IMG/VR virus record: IMGVR_UViG_3300045988_138021
Span: 1-36,282 of that record
Reading direction: 5' to 3' (one strand)
From: a virus
DNA length: 36,282 nucleotides
Shown here: positions 12,244 to 36,282 of the stretch, in pieces
Layout of the letters: the number at the start of each line of letters is the position of its first letter
How positions within the stretch are numbered: the first letter of the stretch is position 1
Position numbers and translations under genes: made by a program
Notes under the pieces: generated by a model
Databases searched by the model: none
What the model was told of the DNA's origin: nothing
What the model saw: only the letters and a program-made list of their open reading frames with translations

Positions 12244-12257
12244 TCGTCTTTAGTTTT

Positions 12258-12316: not shown

Positions 12317-12353
12317 GAAAATCAGACATAACCGAGATTGGAGAAAATCGAAC

Positions 12354-13060: not shown

Positions 13061-13083
13061 ATAGCGTATTTCATCTATGGAGG

Positions 13084-18490: not shown

Positions 18491-18495
18491 ACCGA

Positions 18496-19599: not shown

Positions 19600-19614
19600 A
19601 AGGAGGGCGAAAAT

Positions 19615-20643: not shown

Positions 20644-20649
20644 TTGAGT

Positions 20650-21015: not shown

Positions 21016-21016
21016 T

Positions 21017-22966: not shown

Positions 22967-22969
22967 ATC

Positions 22970-24302: not shown

Positions 24303-24843
24303 TTTTCGTATCCCGACCCTGAACGCGGCGGGTGAGTTCACCGGCTCCGCTCTTGCGCACATTCAGAAGGTGGCGAGCGCGGCGGGCGGCGGCGGTGGCA
24401 CCGCTACCGTTCGAGATACCGGGTGGCGGCGTGTTGATTCGCCTAATCTCGCTTCTGGTTCCGTGTTTTTCCGCCGTGTCGATAACCTTGTTTCTGTTAC
24501 GGTTCGCGGCGGTTCTTGGGATACGGCTACTATTAAGCCGTCGGCCTCGCGCGCACCTAACGGTAGTCCGTTCGGTGACCTGGGTTATCGTGCCCGCCTC
24601 GCGATTAACATTCTTCCTGGGTTCCGTGCGCTAACCCCTGTTGTTGCGCCCGTGATGACTGATGACGGCGAGTCGGTGGGGATGCTGATTATGTCGAATC
24701 CGTCGGACGGCAACCGCCTGTCTTTCCGTGGCTTCCGCAACGGGCAGAAACAGGATGTAGCTAACGTCTATTTGCGGTTCCCTATTCTCACGTGGATTAC
24801 GTCTGAGGATTGGCCGGCCGAGCTACCCGGCGAACCGGCTTAG
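24295..24843 (+). CDS. Minor tail protein, candidate receptor-binding head
   Basis: 182 aa from ATG 24295 (GGAGG upstream; overlaps the upstream stop). Gly run AAGGGGGT followed by a beta-rich domain. Last gene before the lysis cassette. Confidence 0.5.
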   Translation: MSNFRIPTLNAAGEFTGSALAHIQKVASAAGGGGGTATVRDTGWRRVDSPNLASGSVFFRRVDNLVSVTVRGGSWDTATIKPSASRAPNGSPFGDLGYRARLAINILPGFRALTPVVAPVMTDDGESVGMLIMSNPSDGNRLSFRGFRNGQKQDVANVYLRFPILTWITSEDWPAELPGEPA

Positions 24844-24903
24844 CCCCCGTCTAGGGCGGGTGTATCATGAAAAAGAATATTCATTCTACAGAAAGAAACA
24901 CCA

Positions 24904-25389
24904 TTGCCGCCTAATTTTTTTGACCCTATCGCGGCTAGCTTCTGGGACATGCTACAGCTGGGCATTGGCGCAGCTGTAACCACGCTAACCATTAAATTTA
25001 GTGGCTGGCAGTCCACGAAAAAAAAGGAATTAGCAGAGCGGCGGGTAAAAGACGCCGAGATTATGGCGCGCCTGGATGAGCTGGCAAATCAGAGCCAAGC
25101 GGTGAAATCCGAGGTCAAGAATAGCCACGGTACAAATTTGCGCCATGATCTGGACGTGGCTATCAAGAGTGCTACCGAGGCACGCGATAATTCGACGCAG
25201 GCGCTAAAGATTGTCAAGCAGATTAGCGATTCTTTGGAGTCGCTAACCGTCGATTTTCGGGAATCCAAGCGCGAACATATCGATTTTCGCGAGCGCCATA
25301 ATCAGAGCACGGAAGAGATTCATGACCTCAATAAGCGAGTGAACGCTCTATTTTCTGCACAGAACAAGAAGGAGAATAACCATGAGTAA
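24904..25389 (+). CDS. Membrane-anchored coiled-coil protein, lysis-cassette associated
   Basis: One N-terminal hydrophobic segment (FWDMLQLGIGAAVTTLTI), then a charged helical region. Overlaps the endolysin start. The start is TTG 24904 or ATG 24949. Confidence 0.6.
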   Translation: MPPNFFDPIAASFWDMLQLGIGAAVTTLTIKFSGWQSTKKKELAERRVKDAEIMARLDELANQSQAVKSEVKNSHGTNLRHDLDVAIKSATEARDNSTQALKIVKQISDSLESLTVDFRESKREHIDFRERHNQSTEEIHDLNKRVNALFSAQNKKENNHE

Positions 25390-25975
25390 CTACGTGGACA
25401 TTACCCACTGGAACGCCACGTCTTTCACGGCGGCGAACCGTACCATTGACGACATTGATACTATCGTCATTCATCACTGGGGTGTTGATGGTCAGAAGTT
25501 TGATGACGTGTGCCGCTTCTTCCAGAACGGCCCGGGTACTAGTGCCCATTATGTCGTTGAAGCTGGTAAGTGCGCGCAGCTGGTCGAATTGAAGGATATC
25601 GCGTGGCACGCGGGCGATTGGAATGCGAACGCTCGTTCTATTGGCATTGAGTGCCGCCCTGAGATGAGTGATGCTGACTTCGAGACTCTGGCGCACGTCA
25701 TTGCGGATATCGAGACTTTCTACGGCAAGAGCTTCTACATTCACGGTCACAAGGATTATTTCAACACGGCGTGTCCGGGCCGCTGGTATGACCAGCTTGA
25801 CCACCTGATCGAGCGCGTGAATGAGATTGAAGCTGGCATTGATAATGCACCGGCTCCGCTGTCTCATGCTGAGGTGGACGAGAAGCGCGCCGCCTGGGAA
25901 AAGCTCATGCAGGAGCTGGAGGAGGCTAAGGCCGCCGGTGTGGAAGTCGGTAAGTGTCTGGCACAGGTAAACTAA
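25382..25975 (+). CDS. Endolysin, N-acetylmuramoyl-L-alanine amidase (Amidase_2/PGRP fold)
   Basis: IVIHHWG, SAHYVV, AWHAGDWNANARSIGIE and HGHKDY..TACPG fit the His/His/Cys zinc-ligand pattern of T7-lysozyme-type amidases. Confidence 0.9.
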   Translation: MSNYVDITHWNATSFTAANRTIDDIDTIVIHHWGVDGQKFDDVCRFFQNGPGTSAHYVVEAGKCAQLVELKDIAWHAGDWNANARSIGIECRPEMSDADFETLAHVIADIETFYGKSFYIHGHKDYFNTACPGRWYDQLDHLIERVNEIEAGIDNAPAPLSHAEVDEKRAAWEKLMQELEEAKAAGVEVGKCLAQVN

Positions 25976-26006
25976 AACGTTCGTTCTATTTTTTGGAGGT
26001 CTGATT

Positions 26007-26225
26007 ATGAACGAAACTCAGCGTAAGGCAATTTATGCCTTTGTTACCGCGCTTATCCCCGTCGGTATCGTGTACGGTATCGTGACTCAGGAGCAGGCGG
26101 CGGTTATCGTGCCCGCTATCCTGGCTGGCCTGTCGCTTATCATGGCTTACGTGCATGTGCCCGCGCCGGGCGACAAGCAGCAGGACGCGCCCGCCGTGGA
26201 CGATAGCGAGCGCGGCGGCGTGTAG
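26007..26225 (+). CDS. Holin (72 aa, two transmembrane segments, charged C-terminus)
   Basis: GGAGG RBS. Segments AIYAFVTALIPVGIVYGIV and AAVIVPAILAGLSLIMAYV, then an acidic tail. Adjacent to the endolysin. Confidence 0.75.
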   Translation: MNETQRKAIYAFVTALIPVGIVYGIVTQEQAAVIVPAILAGLSLIMAYVHVPAPGDKQQDAPAVDDSERGGV

Positions 26226-26276
26226 CGTGCTATAATTGCTGTGTTCCTTATCAATTGTTCCAGTGATGGGCAGTGA

Positions 26277-26317
26277 AACACCCCCTAGTTTCGTGGTTGG
26301 TTCTAGGGGGTGTTTTT
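26277..26317. terminator. Strong intrinsic terminator between convergent gene blocks
   Basis: 12-bp stem AACACCCCCTAG / CTAGGGGGTGTT, 14-nt loop, T-run on the + strand. It sits between the holin (+) and 26329-26583 (-). Confidence 0.8.
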
Positions 26318-26328
26318 CTATGCCTGGG

Positions 26329-26583
26329 CTAGGTGAAGTCCCGCCGGTTAGCGCGTACAACGAATACGCACGGGGTGAAGCCGTCGTATGCCGCCCTGTA
26401 GCGGGGGTACTGGGTTCGACATAGCATTTCCACCGTGTTGCCGGTGAACTTCGCAGCAATAACACGGTACCGCGCGCCGGTCTCCGTTTCGTAGCTGGTT
26501 ACCCATTTCGAGGCGGCGAAGCCCGGGTAGCGGGCGGCTATATCCCCGCCGTACTCATAGCCGCGTTCTTCGAGGTCAAGCAT
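26329..26583 (-). CDS. Hypothetical protein (84 aa)
   Basis: Start overlaps the stop of the upstream minus-strand gene; part of a tightly packed four-gene minus-strand block. Confidence 0.6.
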   Translation of the reverse strand: MLDLEERGYEYGGDIAARYPGFAASKWVTSYETETGARYRVIAAKFTGNTVEMLCRTQYPRYRAAYDGFTPCVFVVRANRRDFT

Positions 26584-26969
26584 TAGTACGCCCCCCGTTC
26601 TAGCGCCTTTTCGAGCGTGTCCAGAGTTTCCAACAACACGGGCAGCTTGTCCGCCCTGTCCAGATGGTACCCGAAATACAGGAGCTTGATAAGCGCGGTA
26701 ATTTGCAGGCTCCGAGGGGCGCGCCGCGCCTTGTCTAGGAATTTATCGGCGGCTTCGAGTGCTCCGGGCGACGGGACGGGCGCGCCCTCTAGGTGAAGCT
26801 CAAGGCATCGGCGGGCTTTGCGAATGTCTTCCGCTCCGCCCTTTTTCTTGCATCGCCAAACATATTTAATGGCCGCTCCGAGGAAATAGGGCGCTTCCAT
26901 GATGAGCGGTTCAAGCTCTAGCCCCTGAATCTTGCTGTAGTGCTTCGGGTTGATCGGGTCGTGAACCAT
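26583..26969 (-). CDS. DUF3310-like protein
   Basis: INPKHYSK...LGAAIKYVWRCKKKGGAEDIRKARRCLE resembles the conserved DUF3310 pattern (PxHY...IKYxxR...DLxKA). Confidence 0.6.
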   Translation of the reverse strand: MVHDPINPKHYSKIQGLELEPLIMEAPYFLGAAIKYVWRCKKKGGAEDIRKARRCLELHLEGAPVPSPGALEAADKFLDKARRAPRSLQITALIKLLYFGYHLDRADKLPVLLETLDTLEKALERGAY

Positions 26970-27511
26970 TAGATGCCTTCCTTCTCAAGTTCAAGAATTA
27001 GGGTGTGGGCGTTTAGCGCCTTGAGCTGTAGCCATGCCGGGTTGGTGGTATCGGTAAGAATCGCGGTGAGCCGGTCAATCGTCGCCGTGTACGGGCTATC
27101 AGTCTTAACCGGCGCAGGCTTAGCAGGCTTTGCCTTAGCCGCCTTAGCGGGCTTTGCAGGCGGTGCCAGATACGCGGCGGTTAGAGCCTGTACGGTGGTT
27201 TCTACCACCTTAAGCGCTTTGTTGCGACCGGGCGCGCGGGATACCTTGAGAAATTCCAGAGCCTCCGCGTAGGTGAAATGCCACGCGGCGCTAGTAATCT
27301 TGATGCCCGCGTCGCCTACGGCGTTCGGCGGGTAGTTGAACTTTTCGCCGGTGCCCGGGTGGTTTGCCAGGTAGGAGTTTAGGGCTGCACCGGGTGCCTT
27401 GATGCCCGCCGCTTGGAGCAGGGCAAACGCGCGGATCCAGATTACGCCGTCGTCTTCGACGTAGAAGGTCACGGGTTTGTTGTTGATGGTTTCGTGGTGG
27501 AGACGGGGCAT
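26969..27511 (-). CDS. Hypothetical protein (180 aa) with a Pro/Ala/Lys-rich linker
   Basis: Internal ATG (MPRLHH) with GAAAGGAAA upstream, one nt after the RusA stop, is preferred over the 27613 start. Linker PPAKPAKAAKAKPAKPAPVK. Confidence 0.65.
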   Translation of the reverse strand: MPRLHHETINNKPVTFYVEDDGVIWIRAFALLQAAGIKAPGAALNSYLANHPGTGEKFNYPPNAVGDAGIKITSAAWHFTYAEALEFLKVSRAPGRNKALKVVETTVQALTAAYLAPPAKPAKAAKAKPAKPAPVKTDSPYTATIDRLTAILTDTTNPAWLQLKALNAHTLILELEKEGI

Positions 27512-27512
27512 T

Positions 27513-27935
27513 TTAGCGTTTCCTTTCGTTGTAGATTTGGGTGAGGTGGATGTGTACGCCGGGGTTTTCGCCGTATTCCTTGGTGGCTTCGAGGCGGTGG
27601 CATCGTGCGTCATCTTCGATTATGCCGCCACTGGTCAATGAATCCATGACCGCGCGGGTGAGCTTGTCGATATCGGGTTTTACGGCGTGTATCGGGTCTA
27701 GCGTGCCCTGGTAGAGCGCGCCGCTCTTCGGCTCTGTGAAGACGAATCGTAGCGAGGCTTGGAATGCTCCGACGATTAGCGGCGCTCCGACCGCCTGGCT
27801 GGTCTTGAGGTGGTGTTTACGCATGGTTTCGCGCCACGGTTTAGTTCGTGGGTTATCCTCAATGACGCGCTTTCCGTAAGTGCGTTTAGAGCCTTGGGGG
27901 GCGGGTACGCCGGGTATGAAGGTCTTGTAGTGCAT
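27513..27935 (-). CDS. rusA: RusA-type Holliday junction resolvase
   Basis: PGVPAPQGSKR near the N-terminus and KPDIDKLTRAVMDSLT..GIIEDDARC match RusA family motifs; 140 aa. Confidence 0.85.
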   Translation of the reverse strand: MHYKTFIPGVPAPQGSKRTYGKRVIEDNPRTKPWRETMRKHHLKTSQAVGAPLIVGAFQASLRFVFTEPKSGALYQGTLDPIHAVKPDIDKLTRAVMDSLTSGGIIEDDARCHRLEATKEYGENPGVHIHLTQIYNERKR

Positions 27936-27961
27936 CGTCTGGTTTTCCTTTCGACATTTAC

Positions 27962-27991
27962 ACTATAAACCTAGATGCGGGGTGGACACAA
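27962..27991 (-). promoter_or_regulatory. Promoter cassette copy M (drives the minus-strand island)
   Basis: On the minus strand: TTGTGT, 18 nt ending in AGGTT, TATAGT, then GTAAATGT. Same spacing and flanks as the four plus-strand copies. The short leader runs to a GAAAGGAAAA RBS. Confidence 0.65.
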
Positions 27992-28186
27992 GGCTAGGTA
28001 CTGTGAGTATAGTCACTCTTACGGAATGAACATATACACCTTATATGTGGTATGATTAGTAGTGCCAAGATTGCAAGTGATAGGGTTTTGTCTCTCCAAT
28101 TGTTTTCTTTCGGCTTTGGGTTAAATACCTCTCTAGTCTGCGGATTAGGGGGGTATTTTTTTGCCCGAAAGTGCCCGATACCACCC

Positions 28187-28301
28187 CCTAATTTGGTACC
28201 CCTACCAATTCAGGGGGTACCTGATTTGGTAGGGGGGTCTACCCAATTCAGGGGGTACACCCCCCCCTGATTTGGTAGGGGGGTCTACCCAATTCAGGGG
28301 G
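28187..28301. repeat. Iteron-like repeats (origin candidate)
   Basis: A perfect 36-nt direct repeat at 28220-28255 and 28266-28301 (period 46), with a degenerate copy at 28187-28217. Each unit is an imperfect palindrome, CCTGATTTGGTA...TACC(C)AATTCAGG, flanked by G5-G8/C8 runs. Confidence 0.75.
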
Positions 28302-28309
28302 GGGAAATA

Positions 28310-28356
28310 GAAGTATCTAAATTGAAGTTAAATAAATTGAAGTATCTAAATCGAAG
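28310..28356. repeat. AT-rich repeat block (DNA-unwinding-element candidate)
   Basis: GAAGTATCTAAAT at 28310-28322 and 28339-28351. ATTGAAG / ATCGAAG occurs three times. This is the most AT-rich stretch in the region, directly after the iterons. Confidence 0.6.
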
Positions 28357-28484
28357 ACGCGCGCGGGGCGCGGCGTGTGAGATTGCGAGCTACCCCCCCC
28401 CGGTGCTATGCTGAAAAAGCAAACCCAAACAGCCCGAAAAGAAACCATTACCAGTAATCAAAAAATTTGTTAGGAGAGAAAACC

Positions 28485-29393
28485 ATGAGTATTAACTCAA
28501 TCCTGGCAGCAGGATACGTTACCCACAGCCCCGCCGGTGAACCCCTCACCACTGCACAAATGGCGACCTTGAAAGCCCTTGCTTTCTGCACCGGCGAGCA
28601 CTCCAATGCGTGCTACCCCGCTGTGCAGACCCTCCGAGAAATGACAGGTGTTAGCGTGAACACGATTCGCGCGGCACTGAAAGACCTTGACACTATGGGC
28701 TTTATCACCCGTACCCGCCGCGCTGGCACTTCCACGGTCTACACCTTGCAGATTGGCGCTATGCGTGCTACCCACCGCCGCCGCCGCTGGACTGAAACCC
28801 GGGACACTGGAAACCCGTACACGGGCGACCCTAACGCCGTAACCGCCGTAGATGAAATCCCCGTCGAGGAACAGTCGGTAAATGTCAAGCGCATCAACTT
28901 TGCAGAAGCCCGGGTAGAGCCGGTAGAGGAAACCCCCGCCCCGGTACCCGCTGTACCCGCGCCGGCCAAGAAGACCAAGAAGAAGGGCAGCACCCCCGCC
29001 CGCGTAGAATCCGACTTCCTGGACTTCTACGCCGCATACCCGCGCCATGTGGGAAAAGAAGCCGCGCGCCGCGCGTTTGAGAAGGCCGTGAAGGCCGGAA
29101 CGCCCGCCGCCGATATTGTCGAGAGTGCCCGCCGCTACGCCGCCGCTACCGCCGCCGCTGGCACTGAAACCCGCTACGTGGCACACCCGGCGACCTGGCT
29201 AAACGCGGGGCGTTGGAATGATGACATGGAAGATGCCGCGCCGGTTGAGCTTACCCCCTGGCAGAAGAAGGCCGCGCGCCTCGTGCAGTCTATGCAGGCC
29301 GCCGCCGTGGTGAATAACGCGCCCGCGCTTACCGGCGGGGCACCCGCTACCACGCCCGCCGAACCCCTGGCTATCGAACCGGGCTACATCTAA
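28485..29393 (+). CDS. Replication initiator / replisome organiser (N-terminal HTH)
   Basis: ATG 28485 with GGAGAG upstream. HTH-like CYPAVQTLREMTGVSVNTIRAALKDLDTMGFITRTRR. The C-terminal FLDFYAAYPRHVGKEAARRAFEKA...HPATWLNAGRWNDD block is common in phage replication proteins. Directly downstream of the iterons. Confidence 0.6.
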   Translation: MSINSILAAGYVTHSPAGEPLTTAQMATLKALAFCTGEHSNACYPAVQTLREMTGVSVNTIRAALKDLDTMGFITRTRRAGTSTVYTLQIGAMRATHRRRRWTETRDTGNPYTGDPNAVTAVDEIPVEEQSVNVKRINFAEARVEPVEETPAPVPAVPAPAKKTKKKGSTPARVESDFLDFYAAYPRHVGKEAARRAFEKAVKAGTPAADIVESARRYAAATAAAGTETRYVAHPATWLNAGRWNDDMEDAAPVELTPWQKKAARLVQSMQAAAVVNNAPALTGGAPATTPAEPLAIEPGYI

Positions 29394-29404
29394 GGAGCGG
29401 CGAC

Positions 29405-29869
29405 ATGAACAAGCAAGAATGCGCAACGTTCTACGCACAAGCGGCAAAGGTTGATAGCCGCCTCCCTGATCGTGAATTTGATGAGTTCGACGCTTGGGAA
29501 ATGCTTCTAGCCGACATTCCCCCCAAGTTCGCGCCTATGATTTTTCGCGAAATCTACCGCCACGTTCAGGTTCAGCAGCTACAACCTGGCCATATTGTCG
29601 AGGCGTGGGAAACCGTTCGTAAGAACGTAAACGCCGCTATCGCCCGGTGCCAGTCTTTCGAGAAGCGCACGCGCGAGCTGGACGTGTCAGACCGTGAAGA
29701 TGCCACGAAATTTAACGAGATTGTGGAAGCGCATAACTCCGCTGTGGACGCGCTACCGGTTGAGGTAGCGGCGGCTAATGGGTTTAGCCGTAAGGAGCTG
29801 GTACCTGTACCGGGTGAACGCAAGCCCGCGCCCGCCCCGGCGTGGTTTAAGTCACTGCAAAAAAGTTAG
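29405..29869 (+). CDS. Hypothetical protein (154 aa), replication-module neighbour
   Basis: AAGGAG RBS; no NTPase motif seen. Confidence 0.7.
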   Translation: MNKQECATFYAQAAKVDSRLPDREFDEFDAWEMLLADIPPKFAPMIFREIYRHVQVQQLQPGHIVEAWETVRKNVNAAIARCQSFEKRTRELDVSDREDATKFNEIVEAHNSAVDALPVEVAAANGFSRKELVPVPGERKPAPAPAWFKSLQKS

Positions 29870-29877
29870 GTTCTGGC

Positions 29878-29934
29878 TTGCGCCGGGCTTCTAAGTAGGT
29901 TTACACTATAAATGTAAGGCAAAGGAAGCCCTAC
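29878..29934 (+). promoter_or_regulatory. Promoter cassette copy A with leader hairpin
   Basis: TTGCGC (29878), 18 nt, TACACT (29902), ATAAAT, then GTAAGG (29914-29919) pairing with CCCTAC (29929-29934, one mismatch), then CCCAAACCGAAAGGAA and ATG 29962. Confidence 0.65.
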
Positions 29935-29961
29935 AAAACACCCAAACCGAAAGGAACCGAG

Positions 29962-30372
29962 ATGTTCAACCTCACCGCAAACCCCGCCAATGACCGCTAC
30001 CTCACCGCAGACCTGGGCGGCGACACCACCAATGTAAAGCTTCTGGTATGCCCCGATTACGTGGCAGGCACCCATTACGTGATGATTGACCACAAGAGTG
30101 CTATGAAGCTTGCAAACCCCAAGAAGCCCGGTAAGTGGATTCAGGAACTCCGAAATGGACTACGACAGCACAACGGTGCGGCTCAGCTCTGGAGCACCAC
30201 ACCCGAACCCGGTAAGGGTGCGCTAGTCACCGCATGGAAGACCGAGGACGCAATTAACTATCTCGACCTTGATAACGTGATCCGCGCTATCGAAGACCGC
30301 GCCCCCGCATCACACAAGCCTAACGCCGCTATTCTCCGAGACCTCAAGCGTGAGATTGTAGGCGGCATCTAA
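29962..30372 (+). CDS. Hypothetical protein (136 aa), promoter-proximal gene of unit A
   Basis: CGAAAGGAA RBS 7 nt upstream; followed by a GC hairpin. Confidence 0.75.
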   Translation: MFNLTANPANDRYLTADLGGDTTNVKLLVCPDYVAGTHYVMIDHKSAMKLANPKKPGKWIQELRNGLRQHNGAAQLWSTTPEPGKGALVTAWKTEDAINYLDLDNVIRAIEDRAPASHKPNAAILRDLKREIVGGI

Positions 30373-30397
30373 CCCCCGCCGGTTACCGGCAACTAAC

Positions 30398-30421
30398 GCC
30401 CCGCCCCTCACCGGGCGGGGC
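30398..30421 (+). terminator. 24-nt GC hairpin GCCCCGCCC-CTCACC-GGGCGGGGC (attenuator/terminator candidate)
   Basis: 9-bp all-GC stem with no U-tract. Identical to 36118-36141 and the reverse complement of 34248-34271. Confidence 0.5.
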
Positions 30422-30442
30422 GCACACCACCGAAAGAAGGAC

Positions 30443-30658
30443 ATGATGAAGACACTCATCACCCGCTACCCGCGAACCATCGGGTACACCGTAATAGCAG
30501 CACTACAGCTCACCGCATTTTTCGCGGCCATGCTGAATAACCGGCTAGACCCGGCGCACATCTCAAACGTGCTTCTCTCCGTAATCGTCGTGTGCTGTGG
30601 CTTTGAAATTGACATGCTAAAGCTTGAGAAGAAGGATACCCCCCCCCGTGAAAATTAA
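30443..30658 (+). CDS. Small membrane protein (71 aa, two hydrophobic segments)
   Basis: CGAAAGAAGG RBS. Segments TIGYTVIAALQLTAFFAAML and ISNVLLSVIVVCCGF. Confidence 0.65.
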   Translation: MMKTLITRYPRTIGYTVIAALQLTAFFAAMLNNRLDPAHISNVLLSVIVVCCGFEIDMLKLEKKDTPPREN

Positions 30659-30665
30659 CACTCTC

Positions 30666-31562
30666 ATGCGCCGCGCCGTACCCGCGCCCGCCCCCGGCTC
30701 CGACGAATGGAAGCGCAAGATTACCGCCTCCAAGGTGGCATCTGTGGTCTGTAAAAGCCCCTGGACTTCCAAGTTTGCACTACACGCTGAGATGACCGGC
30801 CGCTACGAGGCAGACCCGATTAACCCGGCGGTATTGGAAGCCGGTAACCTACTGGAACCGGCGGTAGCGGATTGGTTTCAGCTGCACAACCCCGGGGTAG
30901 AAGTCCGTGAGTGCAAGAAGCGCAACACTCCCGTATGGTGGGTGGCGCGCGACAATGAAGACTTTGCCGCTACCCCTGACCGTATCCTAGTCGATAAAGC
31001 GACGGGTGAAGTTACCGCGCTACTGGAAATCAAGACCGCGCGCGTCGCCTCCGAATGGGGTGAAGAGGGTACCGAAGAAATCCCCGAGCACTACCGCCTA
31101 CAGGCGCTTTGGCAGATGAAATGCACCGGCGTGCGAACTGTTATTTTCGCTGTGCTGCACGCCGGGCTGAGGTTCGCTACATATCGCGTCGAGTGGGACT
31201 ATGCAGATATTGCGTGGCTTACGGCTGAGGCAGAGGTTTTTATGAACGCGGTACGCACCGGAAAGACACCCGATTACAAGGAAGAGCCGGGCGCGTTCTC
31301 GACCTATGAGGTGTTTAGGTATTATTTCCCTGAGTGCAACGGTGAAGCTGTGATGTTGAGTGATGATCTGGTATACCGTACCCGCCGGGCAAAGCGCCTA
31401 AAGCGATTGGCCGCGCGTGCTGAGGATATCGTCAAGAATGAGCTAACCGCCGTTATGGGGAACGCGAGCGCGGGCGTTGATTACGCGAACCGCACGGTAG
31501 CGCGCCGTTCACAGCGAAAGACCCCCAAGGGGTTTAGCCGCCCGTGGGTGACTATGGTCTAG
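30666..31562 (+). CDS. YqaJ-type (lambda Exo-like) recombination exonuclease
   Basis: GSDEWKRKITASKVASV, EAGNLLEP, ATPDRIL, LLEIKTA and EHYRLQALWQMKCTG match the YqaJ/PD-(D/E)xK pattern. ATG 30666 preferred over TTG 30624. Confidence 0.85.
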   Translation: MRRAVPAPAPGSDEWKRKITASKVASVVCKSPWTSKFALHAEMTGRYEADPINPAVLEAGNLLEPAVADWFQLHNPGVEVRECKKRNTPVWWVARDNEDFAATPDRILVDKATGEVTALLEIKTARVASEWGEEGTEEIPEHYRLQALWQMKCTGVRTVIFAVLHAGLRFATYRVEWDYADIAWLTAEAEVFMNAVRTGKTPDYKEEPGAFSTYEVFRYYFPECNGEAVMLSDDLVYRTRRAKRLKRLAARAEDIVKNELTAVMGNASAGVDYANRTVARRSQRKTPKGFSRPWVTMV

Positions 31563-31611
31563 GCAGCTGTAGCGGCGCTGGAAAATTTTCTAAATTTTTT
31601 CCGGTTTGGGC

Positions 31612-31684
31612 TTGTTTTCCCCTCATAAATAGGTTTATACTATAAATGTAAGGAAGAACAAAGACACCAAGTCGGAAACCTTAC
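31612..31684 (+). promoter_or_regulatory. Promoter cassette copy B with leader hairpin
   Basis: TTGTTT (31612), 18 nt, TATACT (31636), ATAAAT, then GTAAGG (31648-31653) pairing with CCTTAC (31679-31684). AT-rich upstream block GAAAATTTTCTAAATTTTTT at 31581-31600. Confidence 0.65.
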
Positions 31685-31710
31685 AACCCAAACCGAAAGG
31701 AAAACGAATC

Positions 31711-32082
31711 ATGGAACTCACCGCTAAGGACTTCACCGCCCGCCTCGCGGAGAAGGGTTACACCCCCGGTATTGACTTCGACGCAGATAACGGCGACGAA
31801 CCGAACACCGTGAAGCTCACCGGCGCTATCACTTTCAACGGCGCAGATGGTTTTATGGACTTCCGCAACGCAGAGGAATACTACGACATCACGTGTGCAG
31901 AGTATGAAGACCTCGCAATGTTCACTAAGACCTACGACCTGACCGAGGCACAGGTTACCGAAATCGAGACCGGCGGCGAACCCAGCAACGCAGAACAGGA
32001 AGAAAAGTTCTTCGACGCATGGCGTGCAGCTCTCGACGGTATCGGTATCGACCTGAACGACATCAAGGTTTCCAGCCGCTAA
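31711..32082 (+). CDS. Strongly acidic hypothetical protein (123 aa), promoter-proximal gene of unit B
   Basis: CGAAAGGAAAA RBS. By my count about 28 Asp/Glu against about 10 Lys/Arg. Confidence 0.75.
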   Translation: MELTAKDFTARLAEKGYTPGIDFDADNGDEPNTVKLTGAITFNGADGFMDFRNAEEYYDITCAEYEDLAMFTKTYDLTEAQVTEIETGGEPSNAEQEEKFFDAWRAALDGIGIDLNDIKVSSR

Positions 32083-32107
32083 GCACCGCACATAACCACC
32101 GATAACC

Positions 32108-32147
32108 GCCGGGCGGAGGTACTTCCGAATACCCGCCGCCGCCCGGC
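32108..32147 (+). terminator. GC hairpin after the first gene of unit B
   Basis: GCCGGGCGG (32108-32116) pairs with CCGCCCGGC (32139-32147); 22-nt loop; followed by ATTT. Confidence 0.45.
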
Positions 32148-32176
32148 ATTTACCACCACCGAAAGGAACCTACACC

Positions 32177-32995
32177 GTGAGCACTGAAATTCAGCAATTC
32201 ACAGGCACCGCTCTACAGGTAAAGAATGATTTTGTAGATCCCATCAAGAACGCGATTACCGGCGCGTTACCGCTATTCATGCGTGAAGACTCCGAGGCCT
32301 GGATTAGGGGCGCAATTCTGGAGGTTAGCAAGACTCCGCAGCTTGTCCAGTACGCCAAAAACAATTTTCCAGCATTTGCAGGCACGCTAACCCGTGTCGC
32401 CGCGCTGGGTTTACCGCTCAACCGTGACATGGTGTACGTGCTCCCCTTTGCATCGAAACAGGGGATGCAGGCCAACGTTATCATGGGTTGGCGCGGTGAG
32501 CTTGAACTCATTTATCGCGCGGGCAACGTCGAGACCGTCCACCATGAAGAAATCTTTGAGAATGACCGGTACGAATGGAGGGACGGCGCCCCCCGCCTTA
32601 TCGCTCCCGCCCCGGAAGGGCAGCGCGGCAAAATCAAGCACGCCGTAGCATGGGCTGTCTTGAAGAGCGGCAAAATCAGCCAATACGCGGTTGTGAGTGC
32701 CGACCGCATCGCCGCCGCCAAGAAAGCATCACGCGGCTCTAACTCCCCGTCTAGCCCCTGGGTACAACACGAGGTAGCAATGTGGCGCAAAACGGCAATT
32801 CATGAGCTGGCTAATTTCGTGGACTCAAGTGTAGAGGAGTGCCGCCCGGAACGCCTGGAAGCCATGAAGACCCGCGCCGCCCTAGCGCTGGACGTGGAGC
32901 GCGAAAAAACCGCGCGTATGGAAGCGGAAAACCGCGCCCTTGAACTCAAGCTAAAGCTAATGGAACTGGAAGCAAAGAAGAAGGAGGAAAGCTAA
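32177..32995 (+). CDS. recT: RecT-family single-strand annealing protein
   Basis: VYVLPFASKQGMQANVIMGWRGELELIYRAGNVETVHHEEIFENDRYEW fits the RecT core. GTG start with a GAAAGGAA RBS. Partnered with the YqaJ exonuclease. Confidence 0.85.
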   Translation: MSTEIQQFTGTALQVKNDFVDPIKNAITGALPLFMREDSEAWIRGAILEVSKTPQLVQYAKNNFPAFAGTLTRVAALGLPLNRDMVYVLPFASKQGMQANVIMGWRGELELIYRAGNVETVHHEEIFENDRYEWRDGAPRLIAPAPEGQRGKIKHAVAWAVLKSGKISQYAVVSADRIAAAKKASRGSNSPSSPWVQHEVAMWRKTAIHELANFVDSSVEECRPERLEAMKTRAALALDVEREKTARMEAENRALELKLKLMELEAKKKEES

Positions 32996-33321
32996 TGACT
33001 CTAGACGCTCACCGCGTAGACCATGTGCGCAATTTCGATTTTTCAAAGATCCCTAGCGGCTGGTCACTTCTTGCTGAACGCATGGTGCGATACGCCGCAT
33101 TGCACGCCGATTCGCGCGGTGTACTGAACATCAACCGGAAAACTTTTTTTGCTGAGTCAGTTGGTGAAAAGAGCGCACAATACGAGGCAAACCTAATCAA
33201 CGCGATTAACCGCAAGGTGGACGGCGTTACATTTTCTACCGTTGGACGCGGTTCAAGCGCCCGCCTTGTAATCGTCTTTGATGACGAAAAAATCAGTAAG
33301 AGCATGGAAAAGAAGGGTTAG
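32995..33321 (+). CDS. Hypothetical protein (108 aa)
   Basis: AAGGAGGAAA RBS; ATG overlaps the RecT stop. Confidence 0.7.
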   Translation: MTLDAHRVDHVRNFDFSKIPSGWSLLAERMVRYAALHADSRGVLNINRKTFFAESVGEKSAQYEANLINAINRKVDGVTFSTVGRGSSARLVIVFDDEKISKSMEKKG

Positions 33322-33324
33322 AAC

Positions 33325-33876
33325 ATGTCTTCTACCGTAACAGTACTAGGAAATATTGGAGCGGATGCAGAGCGACGCGAAACACAGAACGGAACCCCGT
33401 ATCTCACGTTCACCGTTGCGGATTCACGCTCTAAATGGGACGCGGCCGCCGGTAAGTATGTCACGCTAAATACGACGTGGCGACGCGTAACCACCTTTAA
33501 GGGGTTGGACTATTTGCCCGATCAGCTTGTCAGGGGTGCGACCGTCTACGTATCCGGTAGCGAAGAATTGCGCACCTGGGACAAAGAGGACGGGACGAAG
33601 GGTTACAGCCTGGATGTTATGGCGCATGTGGTGAAGGTGGTATCAAAGTCCACCGATAGCGGGGCACCCGCGCAGGTTCAGACTCAGCCGGTGCAGGGTT
33701 ACCCGGCGGCGAACACCCCGGTTGCACAGCCCGGTTATGCGCAGCAGGGACAGCAGGGACAGCCGCCCGCCACGTATGCACAGCCCGCGCAGGCCGCGCC
33801 GCCCGCTGGTTATGCCGCCGCCACTAACGCTTCGAGCGGTTGGGTTGGATACGATAACGGGGCGACCCCGTTCTAG
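33325..33876 (+). CDS. ssb: Single-stranded DNA-binding protein
   Basis: OB-fold N-terminus VTVLGNIGADAERRETQNGTPYLTFTVA...WRRVTTF...VYVSGSEELRTW. Gly/Gln/Pro-rich linker and a C-terminal tip ending ATPF. Confidence 0.88.
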   Translation: MSSTVTVLGNIGADAERRETQNGTPYLTFTVADSRSKWDAAAGKYVTLNTTWRRVTTFKGLDYLPDQLVRGATVYVSGSEELRTWDKEDGTKGYSLDVMAHVVKVVSKSTDSGAPAQVQTQPVQGYPAANTPVAQPGYAQQGQQGQPPATYAQPAQAAPPAGYAAATNASSGWVGYDNGATPF

Positions 33877-33889
33877 ATCCGATAGCCAG

Positions 33890-33920
33890 AACCCCCGGTG
33901 AATAATCGCCGGGGGTTTGG
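33890..33920 (+). terminator. Terminator after ssb
   Basis: AACCCCCGG pairs with CCGGGGGTT (10-nt loop), followed by TTGG. Confidence 0.55.
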
Positions 33921-33966
33921 CGTATCTAGGGCGCGAAAAAAAGTTTGAAAAATCTTTGATTCTGGC

Positions 33967-34023
33967 TTGCTTTCCACCCCACACAAGGTTTACGCTATAA
34001 ATGTAAGGCAACGAAGACCTTAC
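33967..34023 (+). promoter_or_regulatory. Promoter cassette copy C with leader hairpin
   Basis: TTGCTT (33967), 18 nt, TACGCT (33991), ATAAAT, then GTAAGG (34003-34008) pairing with CCTTAC (34018-34023). Confidence 0.65.
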
Positions 34024-34051
34024 AAAAACCCAAACCCGAAAGGAAACCCCA

Positions 34052-34231
34052 ATGTTGGAGTACTACGAAATCCAGGAATACGTTACCGAGGTAGCAGCAG
34101 GTAACTACCCGTTCCGAGTAATCGACGCGGTAACCGCCGATATTTACGAACGCGGTATAGCCGTCGAGATGGAAGACCTCAAGGCTTACCCGCGAACCCG
34201 TGAACTTCTCAAGATTCACAACGCGGCCTAA
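34052..34231 (+). CDS. 59-aa acidic protein, promoter-proximal gene of unit C (not in the ORF track), paralogue of 35923-36102
   Basis: Hand translation MLEYYEIQEYVTEVAAGNYPFRVIDAVTADIYERGIAVEMEDLKAYPRTRELLKIHNAA*. CGAAAGGAAA RBS. Same length and position as the unit D gene. Confidence 0.7.
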   Translation: MLEYYEIQEYVTEVAAGNYPFRVIDAVTADIYERGIAVEMEDLKAYPRTRELLKIHNAA

Positions 34232-34247
34232 CAACCAACCAACCTAC

Positions 34248-34271
34248 GCCCCGCCCGGTGAGGGGCGGGGC
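34248..34271 (+). terminator. 24-nt GC hairpin, inverted copy (loop GGTGAG)
   Basis: GCCCCGCCC-GGTGAG-GGGCGGGGC is the exact reverse complement of 30398-30421. Confidence 0.5.
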
Positions 34272-34285
34272 ACCCCTAGCAAATC

Positions 34286-34693
34286 ATGGCAAATCAGTTT
34301 TACAAATCAGAGACATGCGCACAGTGTGGCAGCCCCTGGGAAAAACCCGATCTGGTCAATTGCCGCCGGTGCAAACAGCGCGAACTCAAACGCGCCCGCA
34401 CCCGCCGCAAAAAGGCAGAGAAAGCGGGTGAGCTAGAGCGCAAGCGCAAAAACAAGGAATGGGCGGCGACCCATTGCTACATTTGCGGTTCGCTTATGGA
34501 TAATCCAGACCCCAAATGCTACCGGTGCCGCGAACGCATCAAGCGCCGCGAAAAATGGCTAGAACGCCGCGCCGAACGCATGAAACCGAACGACCTGAAC
34601 AACCTAGAAGGCGTGAGGAAGTTCCTACAGGCGCGCCGCCGCCGTCTCAACCAAGACCCCAACACCCCCCCCATCGAAGGAATCGACACATGA
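34286..34693 (+). CDS. Arg/Lys-rich double zinc-ribbon protein (135 aa)
   Basis: Two CxxCG...CxxC units (CAQCGSPWEKPDLVNCRRC and CYICGSLMDNPDPKCYRC) separated and followed by highly basic helices (RARTRRKKAEK, KRREKWLERRAERMK). Confidence 0.75.
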   Translation: MANQFYKSETCAQCGSPWEKPDLVNCRRCKQRELKRARTRRKKAEKAGELERKRKNKEWAATHCYICGSLMDNPDPKCYRCRERIKRREKWLERRAERMKPNDLNNLEGVRKFLQARRRRLNQDPNTPPIEGIDT

Positions 34694-34905
34694 AAGACCC
34701 CATCACCGGGCGACCCCTAACCATCGTCGCCGCCGCGCTCGCAACTGTACCGACCGGCTTTTTTCTCGCCACGCTCATCACCGGCGCAGGTGTGAACATC
34801 GGCAGCTCTATTCTCACCCTCGCTACGTGGTGGCTAGGCGTGGTAATCGTCGCTATCTTTGAATCCAACCCGCGCCCCGCGCGAACCAACCGAGAGGAAC
34901 ACTAA
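34690..34905 (+). CDS. Small membrane protein (71 aa, two hydrophobic segments)
   Basis: ATGA overlap with the upstream stop. Segments LTIVAAALATVPTGFFLATLI and ILTLATWWLGVVIVAIF. The N-terminal extension of ORF-track 34516 was rejected. Confidence 0.65.
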   Translation: MKDPITGRPLTIVAAALATVPTGFFLATLITGAGVNIGSSILTLATWWLGVVIVAIFESNPRPARTNREEH

Positions 34906-34907
34906 CC

Positions 34908-35546
34908 ATGCAGATTATCGAATGGGAAAAATACAAGGCACCCGCCCGACTCTGGCACATCGTCACTACCGAGGCGGTAGACAAGCGGCGCACCACGGCT
35001 ATTATTTTCGCTGACACCCCGGCGAAAACCTACATTTCGCTTGTCGCCGCCGCTGAAATCGCAGGCGTAAGTGAAACCGGCGTACGCGACTATCTCAAGA
35101 AGCACGGCGCGCGGCCTAAGCTATTCACCGTCCCGGCTAACGTCAATCACACCGGACAGGCGCGAAAAATGGCGTTTATCGACCCGCTTACCATGTTCCA
35201 TATTCTCTTAGAGGTAGACCCGCGCGAACAGAGCGTTAGGGGTTGGTTCCATGACCTAACACACTTCGACGGCGACGAAATCCCCAAATTCTGGGGCATG
35301 ACGAATGTTCGAGAGGCGGCGATTATCGAAGATAAGGCGCGCGAAATCGAACTACTGGAAATTCCAGACTTTACCCCGCCCGCCCGCGTCGAGTTTGACG
35401 CTACCGGCGGCATCGAGCAGCTGAACCGCATCATCTCAGATCTGAACGCCCCGTACCATGTGCGAGTGAAGGCATTGCAGATTCAGCATGAGGTGAATCA
35501 GCTTGCTAATACCGTAGACAAGCTGAATGAAGGAAAGGACGCATAA
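34908..35546 (+). CDS. Putative DNA-binding protein (HTH-like segment)
   Basis: GAGAGGAA RBS. ISLVAAAEIAGVSETGVRDYLKKHG resembles a helix-turn-helix. C-terminal coiled coil. Confidence 0.5.
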   Translation: MQIIEWEKYKAPARLWHIVTTEAVDKRRTTAIIFADTPAKTYISLVAAAEIAGVSETGVRDYLKKHGARPKLFTVPANVNHTGQARKMAFIDPLTMFHILLEVDPREQSVRGWFHDLTHFDGDEIPKFWGMTNVREAAIIEDKAREIELLEIPDFTPPARVEFDATGGIEQLNRIISDLNAPYHVRVKALQIQHEVNQLANTVDKLNEGKDA

Positions 35547-35547
35547 A

Positions 35548-35790
35548 ATGCGTATGACTCGACAGATTATCAAGCTCTCAAGCTACCGCGTGAAGGGTGT
35601 AACTTTCGCCGTGGAATTTGATTACGACAAGCCCGGCGACCGCCGCGCTAAGATCGGGGCGGCCTTGAAGTCAATCATTGGTATTCATGAGCTGAATTAT
35701 CTGAGAAATCAGGCAATTAAGATTATGGGTAGCGGCGAATCTGCCCGTGAGGTCTGGAGCTATGAGGTGGTGGAGACTGAGGATATTTAG
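35548..35790 (+). CDS. Hypothetical protein (80 aa)
   Basis: ATG 35548 with GAAAGGA 9 nt upstream and just after the upstream stop; preferred over ATG 35527. Confidence 0.65.
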   Translation: MRMTRQIIKLSSYRVKGVTFAVEFDYDKPGDRRAKIGAALKSIIGIHELNYLRNQAIKIMGSGESAREVWSYEVVETEDI

Positions 35791-35825
35791 CCGAAAATTT
35801 TTCTAAAATTTTCTTGGTTTTTGGC

Positions 35826-35897
35826 TTGCATCTGACATCTCCATAGGTTTATACTATAAATGTAAGGGAAACAGAGAGGAACCCCTCAAAACCTTAC
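35826..35897 (+). promoter_or_regulatory. Promoter cassette copy D with leader hairpin
   Basis: TTGCAT (35826), 18 nt, TATACT (35850), ATAAAT, then GTAAGG (35862-35867) pairing with CCTTAC (35892-35897). AT-rich upstream block GAAAATTTTTCTAAAATTTTC at 35793-35813. Confidence 0.65.
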
Positions 35898-35922
35898 AAC
35901 CCAAACCGAAAGGAGCCCGCAA

Positions 35923-36102
35923 ATGCTGGCATGTCACGAAATTCTCGAATCCATCACCACCGCAGCACACGGCGAAATCGAACCCGCCGTTCTGGAAGCC
36001 GCGGCAACCGAAATTTGGGAAAACAACAGCTTCGAGACTATGGCAGATTTTGAAGCGTTTGAACAGACCTGGGAAATCGTCGCAAAGCACGACGCTAAGT
36101 AA
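35923..36102 (+). CDS. 59-aa acidic protein, promoter-proximal gene of unit D (not in the ORF track), paralogue of 34052-34231
   Basis: Hand translation MLACHEILESITTAAHGEIEPAVLEAAATEIWENNSFETMADFEAFEQTWEIVAKHDAK*. CGAAAGGAG RBS. 19 of 59 identical residues to the unit C protein in an ungapped alignment. Confidence 0.7.
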   Translation: MLACHEILESITTAAHGEIEPAVLEAAATEIWENNSFETMADFEAFEQTWEIVAKHDAK

Positions 36103-36117
36103 CCCCTAACCCAATAC

Positions 36118-36141
36118 GCCCCGCCCCTCACCGGGCGGGGC
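36118..36141 (+). terminator. 24-nt GC hairpin, identical to 30398-30421
   Basis: GCCCCGCCC-CTCACC-GGGCGGGGC, 16 nt after the stop of the 59-aa gene. Confidence 0.5.
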
Positions 36142-36174
36142 ACCCAAACCCCAAACCCGAAAGAAACAAACACC

Positions 36175-36282
36175 ATGACCCCGCGCCCTGGCATTATCGA
36201 CTTTTTCCGAGGCAACCGCACCACCGAACCCGTAATCACGGGTGAGCTGGTACCCGTAATCACGGGTGAGCTGGTACCCGTA
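36175..36282 (+). CDS. 5' part of the junction-spanning hypothetical protein (continues at nt 55 after overlap removal)
   Basis: ATG 36175 after CGAAAGAAAC. No stop before the window end. MTPRPGIIDFFRGNRTTE followed by PVITGELV repeats. Confidence 0.6.
   Translation, partial: MTPRPGIIDFFRGNRTTEPVITGELVPVITGELVPV
36229..36282. repeat. Right copy of the 54-nt end overlap
   Basis: Identical to nt 1-54; lies inside the ORF that starts at 36175. Confidence 0.95.

Follow-up and report, generated by a model that had tools for sequence, protein, structure and literature searches.

Five copies of one conserved promoter cassette lie in the early region of an uncultured, lytic-looking and integrase-free siphovirus of ~36.2 kb (the window analysed here is the whole stretch of 36,282 nucleotides, a circular assembly of 55% GC), and we consider it probable that they act as strong early promoters for a host RNA polymerase of the SigA type, giving hairpin-capped, efficiently translated mRNAs. 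The cassette motif is real and strongly conserved; repeated promoter motifs of a similar kind have been described in other phages of actinobacteria. The host is probably the oral bacterium Rothia, since homologues of the lysin carry this name and sit in prophages within bacterial chromosomal context.

The initial annotation had claimed five copies, four rightward (A–D) and one leftward (E), and all of its coordinates proved exact. Matches to the pattern TTG-N21-TANNNT-N-TAAATG are confined to 29878, 31612, 33967 and 35826 on the plus strand and 27991 on the minus strand, and the 19-mer AGGTTTAYRSTRTAAATGT, which sits 16 nt after TTG in every copy, occurs five times against 0.06 expected, a count reached in none of 100 shuffles. 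The AT-rich upstream block ascribed to B and D was found at both, and in part upstream of C too. The cassettes comprise the following features:

29855..29961, plus strand: cassette A, an A-tract, then GGCTTGC; -35 TTGCGC at 29878-29883
29897-29919, plus strand: cassette A core AGGTTTACACTATAAATGTAAGG; -10 TACACT at 29902-29907, predicted TSS G29914
29913-29935, plus strand: cassette A leader hairpin, containing an A.C mismatch
29941-29955, plus strand: cassette A CCCAAACCGAAAGGA; ATG at 29962
31580..31710, plus strand: cassette B, UP-like block GAAAATTTTCTAAATTTTTT, then -35 TTGTTT at 31612-31617
31631-31653, plus strand: cassette B core; -10 TATACT at 31636-31641, predicted TSS G31648
31647-31685, plus strand: cassette B hairpin, inner helix GAC/GUC
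31687-31701, plus strand: cassette B SAS-like block; ATG at 31711
33935..34051, plus strand: cassette C, A/T tracts, then -35 TTGCTT at 33967-33972
33986-34008, plus strand: cassette C core; -10 TACGCT at 33991-33996, predicted TSS G34003
34002-34024, plus strand: cassette C hairpin
34029-34044, plus strand: cassette C CCCAAACCCGAAAGGA; ATG at 34052
35793..35922, plus strand: cassette D, UP-like block GAAAATTTTTCTAAAATTTTC, then -35 TTGCAT at 35826-35831
35845-35867, plus strand: cassette D core; -10 TATACT at 35850-35855, predicted TSS G35862
35861-35898, plus strand: cassette D hairpin, inner helix GAGG/CCUC
35900-35914, plus strand: cassette D SAS-like block; ATG at 35923
27936..27996, minus strand: cassette E, leftward; -35 TTGTGT at 27991-27986, core at 27972-27954
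27967-27962, minus strand: cassette E -10 TATAGT; predicted TSS G27955
minus strand: cassette E leader, ~20 nt and hairpin-free, AAATGT running directly into CGAAAGGA, then the RusA ATG at 27935

The motif, whose absence from related phages had been named beforehand as a refutation, is present in relatives, and we compared 87 distinct cassettes from ~60 related metagenomic stretches. Conservation does reach beyond the -35/-10 hexamers, as had been proposed: in a set of 47 distinct cassettes, as in the 87, there is hardly any variation in GGCTTGC (-39..-33) or in the block spanning -17 to +6, and the intervening 16-nt spacer keeps its length and not its sequence, with TTG at the same distance in 84 of the 87. 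In the set of 47, phased A/T tracts recur at about -65, -54 and -43, and variation in the -10 hexamer is confined to positions 3 and 5 (TAyAsT); a hexamer that varies at only two of its three middle positions carries the signature of a housekeeping-sigma promoter. Cro-side promoters in other Rothia-type phages (TTGACG-18-TATAGT and TTGACT-18-TACGAT) suggest that a housekeeping type with an 18-nt spacer is usual in this host group; against the SigA reading, a scan with an E. coli-type consensus did not pick up the cassettes. Host polymerase carrying the housekeeping sigma factor would read all five cassettes early, using UP-element-like phased A/T tracts, a -35 GGCTTGC, an 18-nt spacer and TAyAsT within the invariant stretch -17 to +2, and would start at a G 7 nt after the -10 hexamer.

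Known SigA contacts do not account for the invariance of AGGTT (-17..-13) and ATAAATGT (-6..+2), and we rejected a TGn extended -10 as its basis, the sequence not being TGn. It is possible, if not what we favour, that the block from -17 to +6 is at once promoter and binding site of one phage or host factor switching the five units together, be it a cassette-driven shut-off repressor, an activator encoded in the initiator operon or an Lsr2-like silencer of AT-rich DNA. The conservation exceeds what the hexamers need, the core holds a partial dyad (TTTA-N5-TAAA), the block stands out as AT-rich against a genome of 55% GC, the extra bases are missing from another candidate promoter of the same genome, and the early region encodes several small basic zinc-ribbon proteins, all of which would fit such a site. 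But variation falls at precisely the positions where a TAnnnT hexamer allows it, and the dyad shows no symmetric co-variation across cassettes: its positions 8 and 12 vary independently (C8 with A12, T8 with G12), and the symmetric C8/G12 is never seen. Nothing in Pfam and PHROGs scans of ~30 early proteins points to the single regulator or RNAP-modifying factor that the initial annotation had invoked, no repressor, Cro, sigma, WhiB or Lsr2 family being found among them; a dedicated cassette regulator, unsupported by these scans, is possible. Nor did the HTH-like protein at 34908-35546, offered as a binder, hold up: it matches no DNA-binding family, the matches to its AlphaFold model are PUR-alpha-like and none is significant, and in sister phages with unchanged cassettes it falls to ~40% identity, its putative recognition helix diverging as well.

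Downstream of the predicted start, the pairing of GTAAGG with CCTTAC proposed for the plus copies was recovered in all four (as CCCTAC in A); the arms are separated by 9, 25, 9 and 24 nt in A, B, C and D, and in each leader this pairing is the minimum-free-energy fold, although single-leader z-scores are modest (-1.7, -1.8, -3.9 and -2.0, respectively). The stem (U)GUAAGG/CCUUAC(A), beginning at the predicted +1, is kept in all ~70 distinct plus-type leaders; it closes the minimum-free-energy fold, at first in 42 of 42 leaders and then in the ~70, and unguided RNAalifold recovers it too. Paired cells amount to 89.8%, against 14-50% with the partner slid, and the loops inside the stem, 5-25 nt long, fall into five or more interchangeable classes that reassort freely with respect to downstream gene families, indicating that the stem is kept and not the loop. 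One-sided changes are mostly to G.U or U.G, pointing to an RNA helix kept on the sense strand only. Compensatory double changes number zero in the plus-type leaders. Departures from the stem are limited to wobbles and to a single position where a mismatch is tolerated, the one opposite A+4, with a mismatch or bulge there in 13 of 59 leaders. The lack of compensation is explained by the 5' arm being locked within the promoter block, so that conserved complementarity is the sole basis for the structure. Folding energies of -6 to -12 kcal/mol mark the stems as weak, and across relatives the leftward copy before RusA never has one. In rightward cassettes the first 6-7 transcribed bases would pair with CCUUAC(A) 5-25 nt downstream, so that the mRNA would open with a stem-loop and no single-stranded 5' tail, which by analogy with ompA and papA may shield the transcript from the 5'-end-dependent RNase E and RNase J.

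Directly behind the hairpin, ACCCAAACCGAAAGGA occurs exactly at 29940, 31686 and 35899, with a variant longer by one base at 34029. The conserved ribosome-binding block described there is thus present, but its CA-rich GAAAGGA context is not cassette-specific, recurring in weaker form at no fewer than nine further early-gene starts in the genome (at least 9). Folding predictions leave most of the Shine-Dalgarno region unpaired, and an unstructured CA-rich stretch followed by a 7-nt Shine-Dalgarno sequence would favour efficient translation. That the hairpin is instead a translational switch, whose anti-Shine-Dalgarno-like 3' arm CCUUAC sequesters GAAAGGA once the 5' arm is occupied or removed, strikes us as highly improbable: pairing of CCUUAC with GAAAGG is possible at five of six positions, and when the 5' arm is deleted in silico the Shine-Dalgarno sequence becomes less likely to be unpaired in B (probability falling from 0.74 to 0.40) and D (from 0.70 to 0.53), but A and C do not change, the alternative helix is weak, and no trans-acting partner is known.

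The proposed division of the early region into units is supported, except that the first rightward unit, the replication initiator gene (28485-29393) together with 29405-29869, is not cassette-driven. It has a plain candidate promoter of its own, TTGCGA-18-TATGCT, which is conserved in a relative and has neither the AGGTT nor the ATAAATGT bases. Unit D continues for ~4.3 kb, beyond the point at which the circular assembly ends. Behind the small first gene of a plus cassette there is usually a strong GC hairpin that lacks a T tract:

30399..30420, plus strand: CCCCGCCC-N6-GGGCGGGG, GC hairpin of unit A, without T tract, ~26 nt past the stop of the first gene (29962-30372)
32108..32140, plus strand: GC-rich hairpin GCCGGGCGG...CCGCCCGGC, after the first gene of unit B (31711-32082)
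34249..34270, plus strand: unit A GC hairpin repeated, inverted, loop GGTGAG, after the first gene of unit C (34052-34231)
36119..36140, plus strand: unit A GC hairpin repeated, after the first gene of unit D (35923-36102)

This rule holds across relatives, the hairpin being absent where a cassette abuts a core gene; cassette E has neither leader hairpin nor GC hairpin after its first gene. Under the SigA-type promoter model, the GC hairpin would close the promoter-proximal small gene as a putative 3' barrier or partial stop, making that gene the most strongly expressed of each unit, while polymerase would still pass into the recombination and replication genes. The order of promoter, hairpin plus linear element, small gene, GC hairpin and essential genes, together with the joint absence of both hairpins at E, would also suit a nut- or put-like RNA signal in which the leader hairpin, together with the conserved ACCCAAACC, recruits a factor for antitermination or processivity that carries polymerase past the GC hairpin. 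We find this improbable: loops that are free in length (5-25 nt) and sequence, and interchangeable, are incompatible with loop-specific protein contact of the boxB type; GC hairpins without U tracts need no antitermination by the standard model; early genes in general share the CA-rich GAAAGGA context; and no N- or Q-like protein was recognised among the scanned early proteins.

Across relatives, first genes come and go between cassette and core genes, many combinations of loop class, spacer class and downstream gene family occur, and the phage encodes both RecT and a YqaJ exonuclease. Such a pattern could arise if the cassettes were short homologous linkers for RecT/YqaJ module swaps, kept identical by gene conversion, the extra conservation being mainly a by-product of concerted evolution on an otherwise plain promoter. 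This seems unlikely to us, as conversion alone explains neither the sharp edges of the block against the free 16-nt spacer and loop nor the fact that the 3' arm still pairs with its 5' partner in five or more unrelated loop classes.

The closest analogue of the cassettes is the ESAS/SAS system described in Cluster K mycobacteriophages (PMC3203893; Adephagia, PMC11373665; 188-genome survey, PMC12699233), with seven ESAS in the Adephagia genome (PMC11373665). Both ESAS and cassettes are multi-copy, strongly conserved and intergenic, are confined to the non-structural arm of an actinobacteriophage, carry SigA-like -35/-10 hexamers spaced by 17-18 bp and an inverted repeat with variable spacer that some sites lack, and continue, with SAS, into conserved sequence past the ribosome-binding site just before the start codon; function is putative in both. 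Host genus and phage lineage differ, however, and the SAS consensus GGGATAGGAGCCC is absent from this phage genome, there being no sequence relationship. The inverted repeat is 7-8 bp in the cassettes and 15-17 bp in ESAS, where it overlaps the promoter; that of the cassettes lies wholly downstream of the -10, from the predicted +1, and would therefore form a hairpin at the very start of the transcript. A further difference from ESAS/SAS is the GC hairpin that follows the first gene.

The Streptomyces phage phiC31 likewise has many near-identical early promoters with conserved inverted repeats that divide its early region into units. By contrast, phiC31 is temperate and its repeats are operators bound by a known repressor, whereas no repressor was found in the early proteins scanned here and the repeat spacer is variable (5-25 nt); the early promoters of phiC31 are not known to be SigA-like. 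Phage morons, consisting of promoter, small gene and terminator in the late regions of temperate phages and expressed from the prophage, share with the cassette units accessory small genes that come and go, a promoter upstream and a hairpin downstream, but the cassette units head early operons of an integrase-free phage and their hairpins have no U tracts. As for the leader, the B. subtilis aprE leader is an mRNA stabilizer with a 5'-terminal stem-loop. In E. coli, ompA and papA carry 5'-terminal stem-loops that stabilize mRNA (literature listed in PMC3997798). Like these three, the cassettes would place a stem-loop at the very 5' end, with little or no single-stranded tail, ahead of an accessible ribosome-binding site. 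Those elements are single and gene-specific, with measured effects on half-life, whereas stabilization by the cassettes is putative; the cassettes, moreover, reuse one stem with interchangeable loops on at least four units per genome.

The pattern TTG-N21-TANNNT-N-TAAATG matches the window solely at 29878, 31612, 33967 and 35826 on the plus strand (cassettes A to D) and at 27991 on the minus strand (cassette E), and every coordinate given for these five promoter copies in the initial annotation proved exact. With five occurrences of the 19-mer AGGTTTAYRSTRTAAATGT in the window against 0.06 expected, the cassette is real and highly non-random. The ribosome-binding stretch ACCCAAACCGAAAGGA, described as conserved in the four plus-strand copies, is exact in three of them and near-exact in one. 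A survey of relatives, proposed at the outset as a check, bore out the motif: the exact block AGGTTTAYRCTATAAATGTAAGG is present in 17 stretches of ~36-kb IMG/VR contigs and likewise in sister phages found through a divergent early protein, and the 19-nt core pattern around the -10, taken without its AAGG arm, is found in 39 related metagenome stretches. Cassette-bearing relatives share 75-92% nucleotide identity and their gene order with the window; pooled from all of them, 87 distinct cassettes form our comparison set. The remaining 80 matches of the metagenome scan arose by chance, mostly in low-GC contigs and many apparently within coding sequence, and no copy in a chromosomal context resembling the host was seen there; a scan of genome contigs with an over-degenerate pattern returned single chance matches in unrelated taxa, none related to the window.

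The two ends of the window overlap by 54 nt (36229-36282 repeats 1-54), indicating a circular assembly, and the resulting genome of 36,228 bp (55% GC) is laid out as follows.

~4,560 to 25,975, rightward: late genes, with small and large terminase subunits, portal, capsid and Amidase_2 lysin
25,328-27,935, leftward: leftward block, beginning with RusA
~28,000-28,460: intergenic region with iterons
Rightward, past the window end to ~4,000, then an HNH gene: early region, with replication initiator, YqaJ exonuclease, RecT, SSB and many orphan proteins

The 54-nt overlap itself falls within the gene 36175..579 and holds a 24-nt tandem repeat encoding the repeated peptide VITGELVP.

The INPHARED phage collection gave no nucleotide match, either to the right arm by megablast or to cassette D by sensitive blastn, and no close relative was found among deposited phage genomes; the large terminase is ~39% identical to its counterparts in Arthrobacter and Microbacterium phages. 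Homologues of the lysin, 57-62% identical, are named Rothia mucilaginosa or uncultured Rothia and are located in prophages adjoining bacterial chromosomal genes, from which we infer that the host is Rothia, a genus for which our literature search found no characterised lytic phage. Followed as a route to distant relatives, the lysin led to temperate prophages of Rothia that differ in their early regions and lack the cassette; these served for host assignment and as promoter comparators only. The temperate Rothia-type phages L147 (ERZ27319295) and L150/L151 have their lysin family in common with the window, and L147 additionally has an HTH_36 initiator-type gene; all carry an integrase and a repressor/Cro module and lack the cassette motif. 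Neither an integrase nor a repressor was found in the genome studied here. Since L147 and L150/L151 share the lysin but differ in integrase, repressor/Cro module and cassette, the cassette lineage may represent a lytic offshoot within a gene pool that is shared in part.

All five copies in the window read TTGnnn, 18 nt, TAyrsT, and a conserved G lies 7 nt past the hexamer, at the predicted start (+1) when the hexamer is numbered -12 to -7. The distance to the TTG is identical in 84 of the 87 distinct cassettes, the other three being offset in a way consistent with a spacer 1 nt shorter, so that spacer length is fixed; the sequence of the 16 nt separating the TTG from AGGTT varies, and spacer information is mostly below 1 bit. 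Upstream, GGCTTGC at -39 to -33 is conserved in the profile of the relatives, and phased A/T tracts lie near -65, -54 and -43. Within the hexamer, T-12, A-11 and T-7 are conserved at 98-100%, and nearly all variation falls at positions 3 and 5 (TAyAsT), that is, to -10 and -8. Such a profile would be expected where selection acts on a promoter of the form TTGnnn-18-TAnnnT preceded by an UP-like region, and it agrees with a housekeeping sigma factor (sigma-70/SigA) both in geometry, with TTGnnn and TAnnnT 17 ± 1 nt apart, and in conservation, with hexamer positions 1, 2 and 6 fixed, the middle free, and the spacer fixed in length and free in sequence. The 18-nt geometry looks normal for the host group, as the cro-side promoters of two temperate Rothia-type phages without the cassette read TTGACG-18-TATAGT and TTGACT-18-TACGAT. 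A scan for promoters and terminators of E. coli style missed the cassettes and returned sites no commoner than in shuffled sequence, and is uninformative here.

As the initial annotation held, conservation goes well beyond the hexamers: the block from -17 to +6 is almost invariant among cassettes, with AGGTT (-17 to -13) and ATAAATGT (-6 to +2) as invariant as the hexamer's fixed positions. An extended -10 element (TGn) does not explain the bases 5' of the hexamer, where positions -15 to -13 read GTT; a separate candidate promoter of this genome has TGn, at 28047-28056. Nor is a dimeric operator supported by the partial dyad of the core (TTTA-N5-TAAA), because changes at its positions 8 and 12 are independent of one another and in no case symmetrical. 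The extra bases seem not to be a general requirement, since one further candidate promoter dispenses with both blocks.

28384-28413: plain candidate promoter TTGCGA-18-TATGCT, upstream of the initiator operon, without AGGTT and ATAAATGT

This candidate, kept in the relative L276 as TTGCAA...TATTCT, suggests that the genome has two promoter classes. AGGTT and ATAAATGT thus mark a class, and their role may lie either in promoter strength or in factor binding.

The leader hairpin that had been proposed for the plus-strand copies was recovered by folding: all four leaders pair GUAAGG with CCUUAC (CCCUAC in A), with z of -1.7 to -3.9, and the Shine-Dalgarno sequence stays open in the four predicted folds. 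A switch that sequesters the Shine-Dalgarno sequence found weak support, in two of the four leaders. A closing stem that begins at -1/+1, counted from the predicted start, is common to all plus-type leaders, first in a set of 42 distinct leaders and then in one of ~70, and RNAalifold recovers it unaided; among 59 aligned leaders, 89.8% of cells are paired, compared with 14-50% after sliding of the 3' partner. Neither pair counts nor RNAalifold revealed compensatory double changes in the stem, as its 5' arm is frozen within the promoter block. Within the seven-pair core, 13 one-sided changes produce G.U or U.G wobbles, of which eight fall on the outermost pair (-1), which precedes the predicted start; such wobbles preserve the helix in sense-strand RNA only. 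Opposite A+4, 13 of the 59 leaders carry a mismatch or bulge, and two further mismatches were counted.

The stem encloses loops of 5-25 nt, of which at least five classes can be told apart; some form small inner helices of their own, and the classes combine in many ways with spacer classes and downstream gene families, the MLEYYE gene alone standing behind four of them. Because the loop classes vary and combine so freely with spacers and genes, it is the stem, and not the loop, that is maintained, a pattern that fits a structural function of the 5' end and speaks against recognition of the loop by a boxB-type protein. The lambda nut site (boxA/boxB) differs accordingly, having a short conserved loop in place of the five freely exchanged classes. 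A double-stranded DNA operator is disfavoured by the variable spacing of the arms. The leftward cassettes (16 distinct) all precede RusA and none has the hairpin; in cassette E of the window, AAATGT continues straight into CGAAAGGA and the RusA start. Rfam covariance models matched no family, the sole hit being a chance miRNA (E = 0.47) in the iteron region. No T run follows the leader hairpins or the GC hairpins described below on the plus strand, as an intrinsic terminator would require, and the terminator scan flagged leader A only in the antisense reading. The sequence comparisons leave the reading of the cassettes as promoters with a leader hairpin well supported.

Across relatives, the first genes behind plus cassettes belong to the families MELTAK, MLEYYE, MFNLTA, MLA.HE, MSTTYR and MAKTYT, and a strong GC hairpin that lacks a T tract nearly always follows them within ~20-30 nt; no such hairpin is present where a cassette abuts a core gene (RusA, MTPRPG, MTNQYK, MGRNRF). 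The window has these hairpins behind the first genes of all four plus-cassette units (A to D).

30399-30420, 34249-34270 and 36119-36140: GC hairpin CCCCGCCC-N6-GGGCGGGG, three copies, one inverted, each after its unit's first gene
32108-32140: a different GC hairpin, after the first gene of unit B, with no T tract

Relatives differ in which first genes they have, and in the relative L004 the cassette leads directly into the gene that lies behind the window's hairpin. In three of the four units (31711-32082, 34052-34231 and 35923-36102) the product is small and acidic (123, 59 and 59 aa; pI 4.1-4.6); these three proteins have no family match, and could be host-takeover or anti-defence proteins. 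We infer an arrangement in which accessory first genes, set between 5' and 3' hairpins, would be maximally expressed, and in which the polymerase would read through past the first gene into the recombination and replication genes. The right arm's only classical-looking terminator, CCCCCGG...CCGGGGG followed by TTTGG (33889-33920), lies after SSB and just before cassette C.

The suggestion that a single regulator governs the cassettes is currently unsupported: searches of ~30 proteins of the early region and leftward block against Pfam and PHROGs found no repressor, sigma, WhiB or Lsr2 family. The protein encoded at 34908-35546, put forward as a helix-turn-helix binder, matched nothing in Pfam, PHROGs or a PDB sequence search; it is only ~40% identical in sister phages, where the second helix of the putative helix-turn-helix diverges and the cassettes do not differ from those of the window, and its AlphaFold model (pLDDT 75) yields, at best, insignificant structural matches to PUR-alpha-like repeats. 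This makes it a weaker, though still possible, candidate. Nucleic-acid binding is plausible for several other, unassigned early proteins (34286-34693, 1191-1283, 1830-2030 and 576-767), which are small and either rich in cysteine (zinc-ribbon-like) or very basic (pI up to 10). A bolder scheme, which we think improbable, would make the -17 to +6 block and the leader of hairpin plus ACCCAAACC the shared address of a phage factor acting on DNA or RNA, with an orphan zinc-ribbon or basic early protein as candidate; the units that it coordinates, bounded by hairpins and monocistron-like, would make up a small regulon with interchangeable small acidic proteins as cargo, possibly for host takeover or anti-defence, and the cassettes would double as recombination linkers for cargo swapping.

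The closest described system is found in Cluster K mycobacteriophages, in their ESAS and SAS elements. SAS, 13 bp long and conserved, marks the translation starts of 11-19 genes, all in the non-structural arm, and at about half of its sites an imperfect 17-bp inverted repeat, variable in its spacer, stands upstream (PMC3203893); Adephagia has seven ESAS, 46-47-bp motifs with SigA-like hexamers 17-18 bp apart (PMC11373665), and the function of both elements is still unverified (PMC12699233). The window cassettes are like ESAS in copy number, non-structural location and hexamers, but their repeat is only 7-8 bp long and lies downstream of the -10, on the transcribed side, whereas that of ESAS spans 15-17 bp. 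The SAS consensus GGGATAGGAGCCC has no match in the window at up to two mismatches, and the cassettes, found in a different phage lineage and host, show no sequence similarity to either element; they are an analogue of ESAS/SAS and not a homologue. Mechanistically, the leader hairpin is most like 5'-terminal stem-loop stabilisers (PMC3997798). Unlike Cluster A stoperators and phiC31 inverted repeats, the cassettes come with no cognate repressor that we could find and no dyad co-variation, and they occur at promoters only.

The cassettes provide a second, independent case of this unexplained architecture in actinobacteriophages, and an inverted repeat on the transcribed side may help to decide whether such repeats act as RNA or DNA. 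For gene expression in Rothia and its relatives among the Micrococcaceae, they also supply a set of parts that can be tested, comprising UP-like tracts, -35, extended block around the -10, 5' cap hairpin, CA-rich leader and Shine-Dalgarno sequence. The reassortment of loops, spacers and first genes indicates that short conserved regulatory sequences can serve as joints of phage mosaicism. Should AGGTTTAnnnTnTAAATG occur at Rothia rRNA or ribosomal-protein promoters, the phage would be copying a strong-promoter form of its host; its absence there would favour a phage-specific signal.

The region around cassette E has further features. Back to back with it lies an extended -10 candidate promoter on the plus strand (28027-28056; TGAACA-18-TATGAT, with TG before the hexamer), which reads TGcTATAAT in L276. 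Just upstream of the -35 of cassette E lies a near-palindrome, GTGAGTATAGTCAC (28003-28016), kept in most E-type cassettes of relatives and lacking from plus cassettes, which may be an operator particular to the leftward unit. Directly upstream of the replication initiator gene (28485-29393), an iteron array at 28180-28356, probably the origin, contains about six copies of CCAATTCAGGGGG, in both orientations, and behind them three repeats of the AAATTGAAGTATCTAAAT type. In L276 the iterons read differently (GGTACATTTTGCAGGGGG), suggesting co-variation of the iterons with the initiator.
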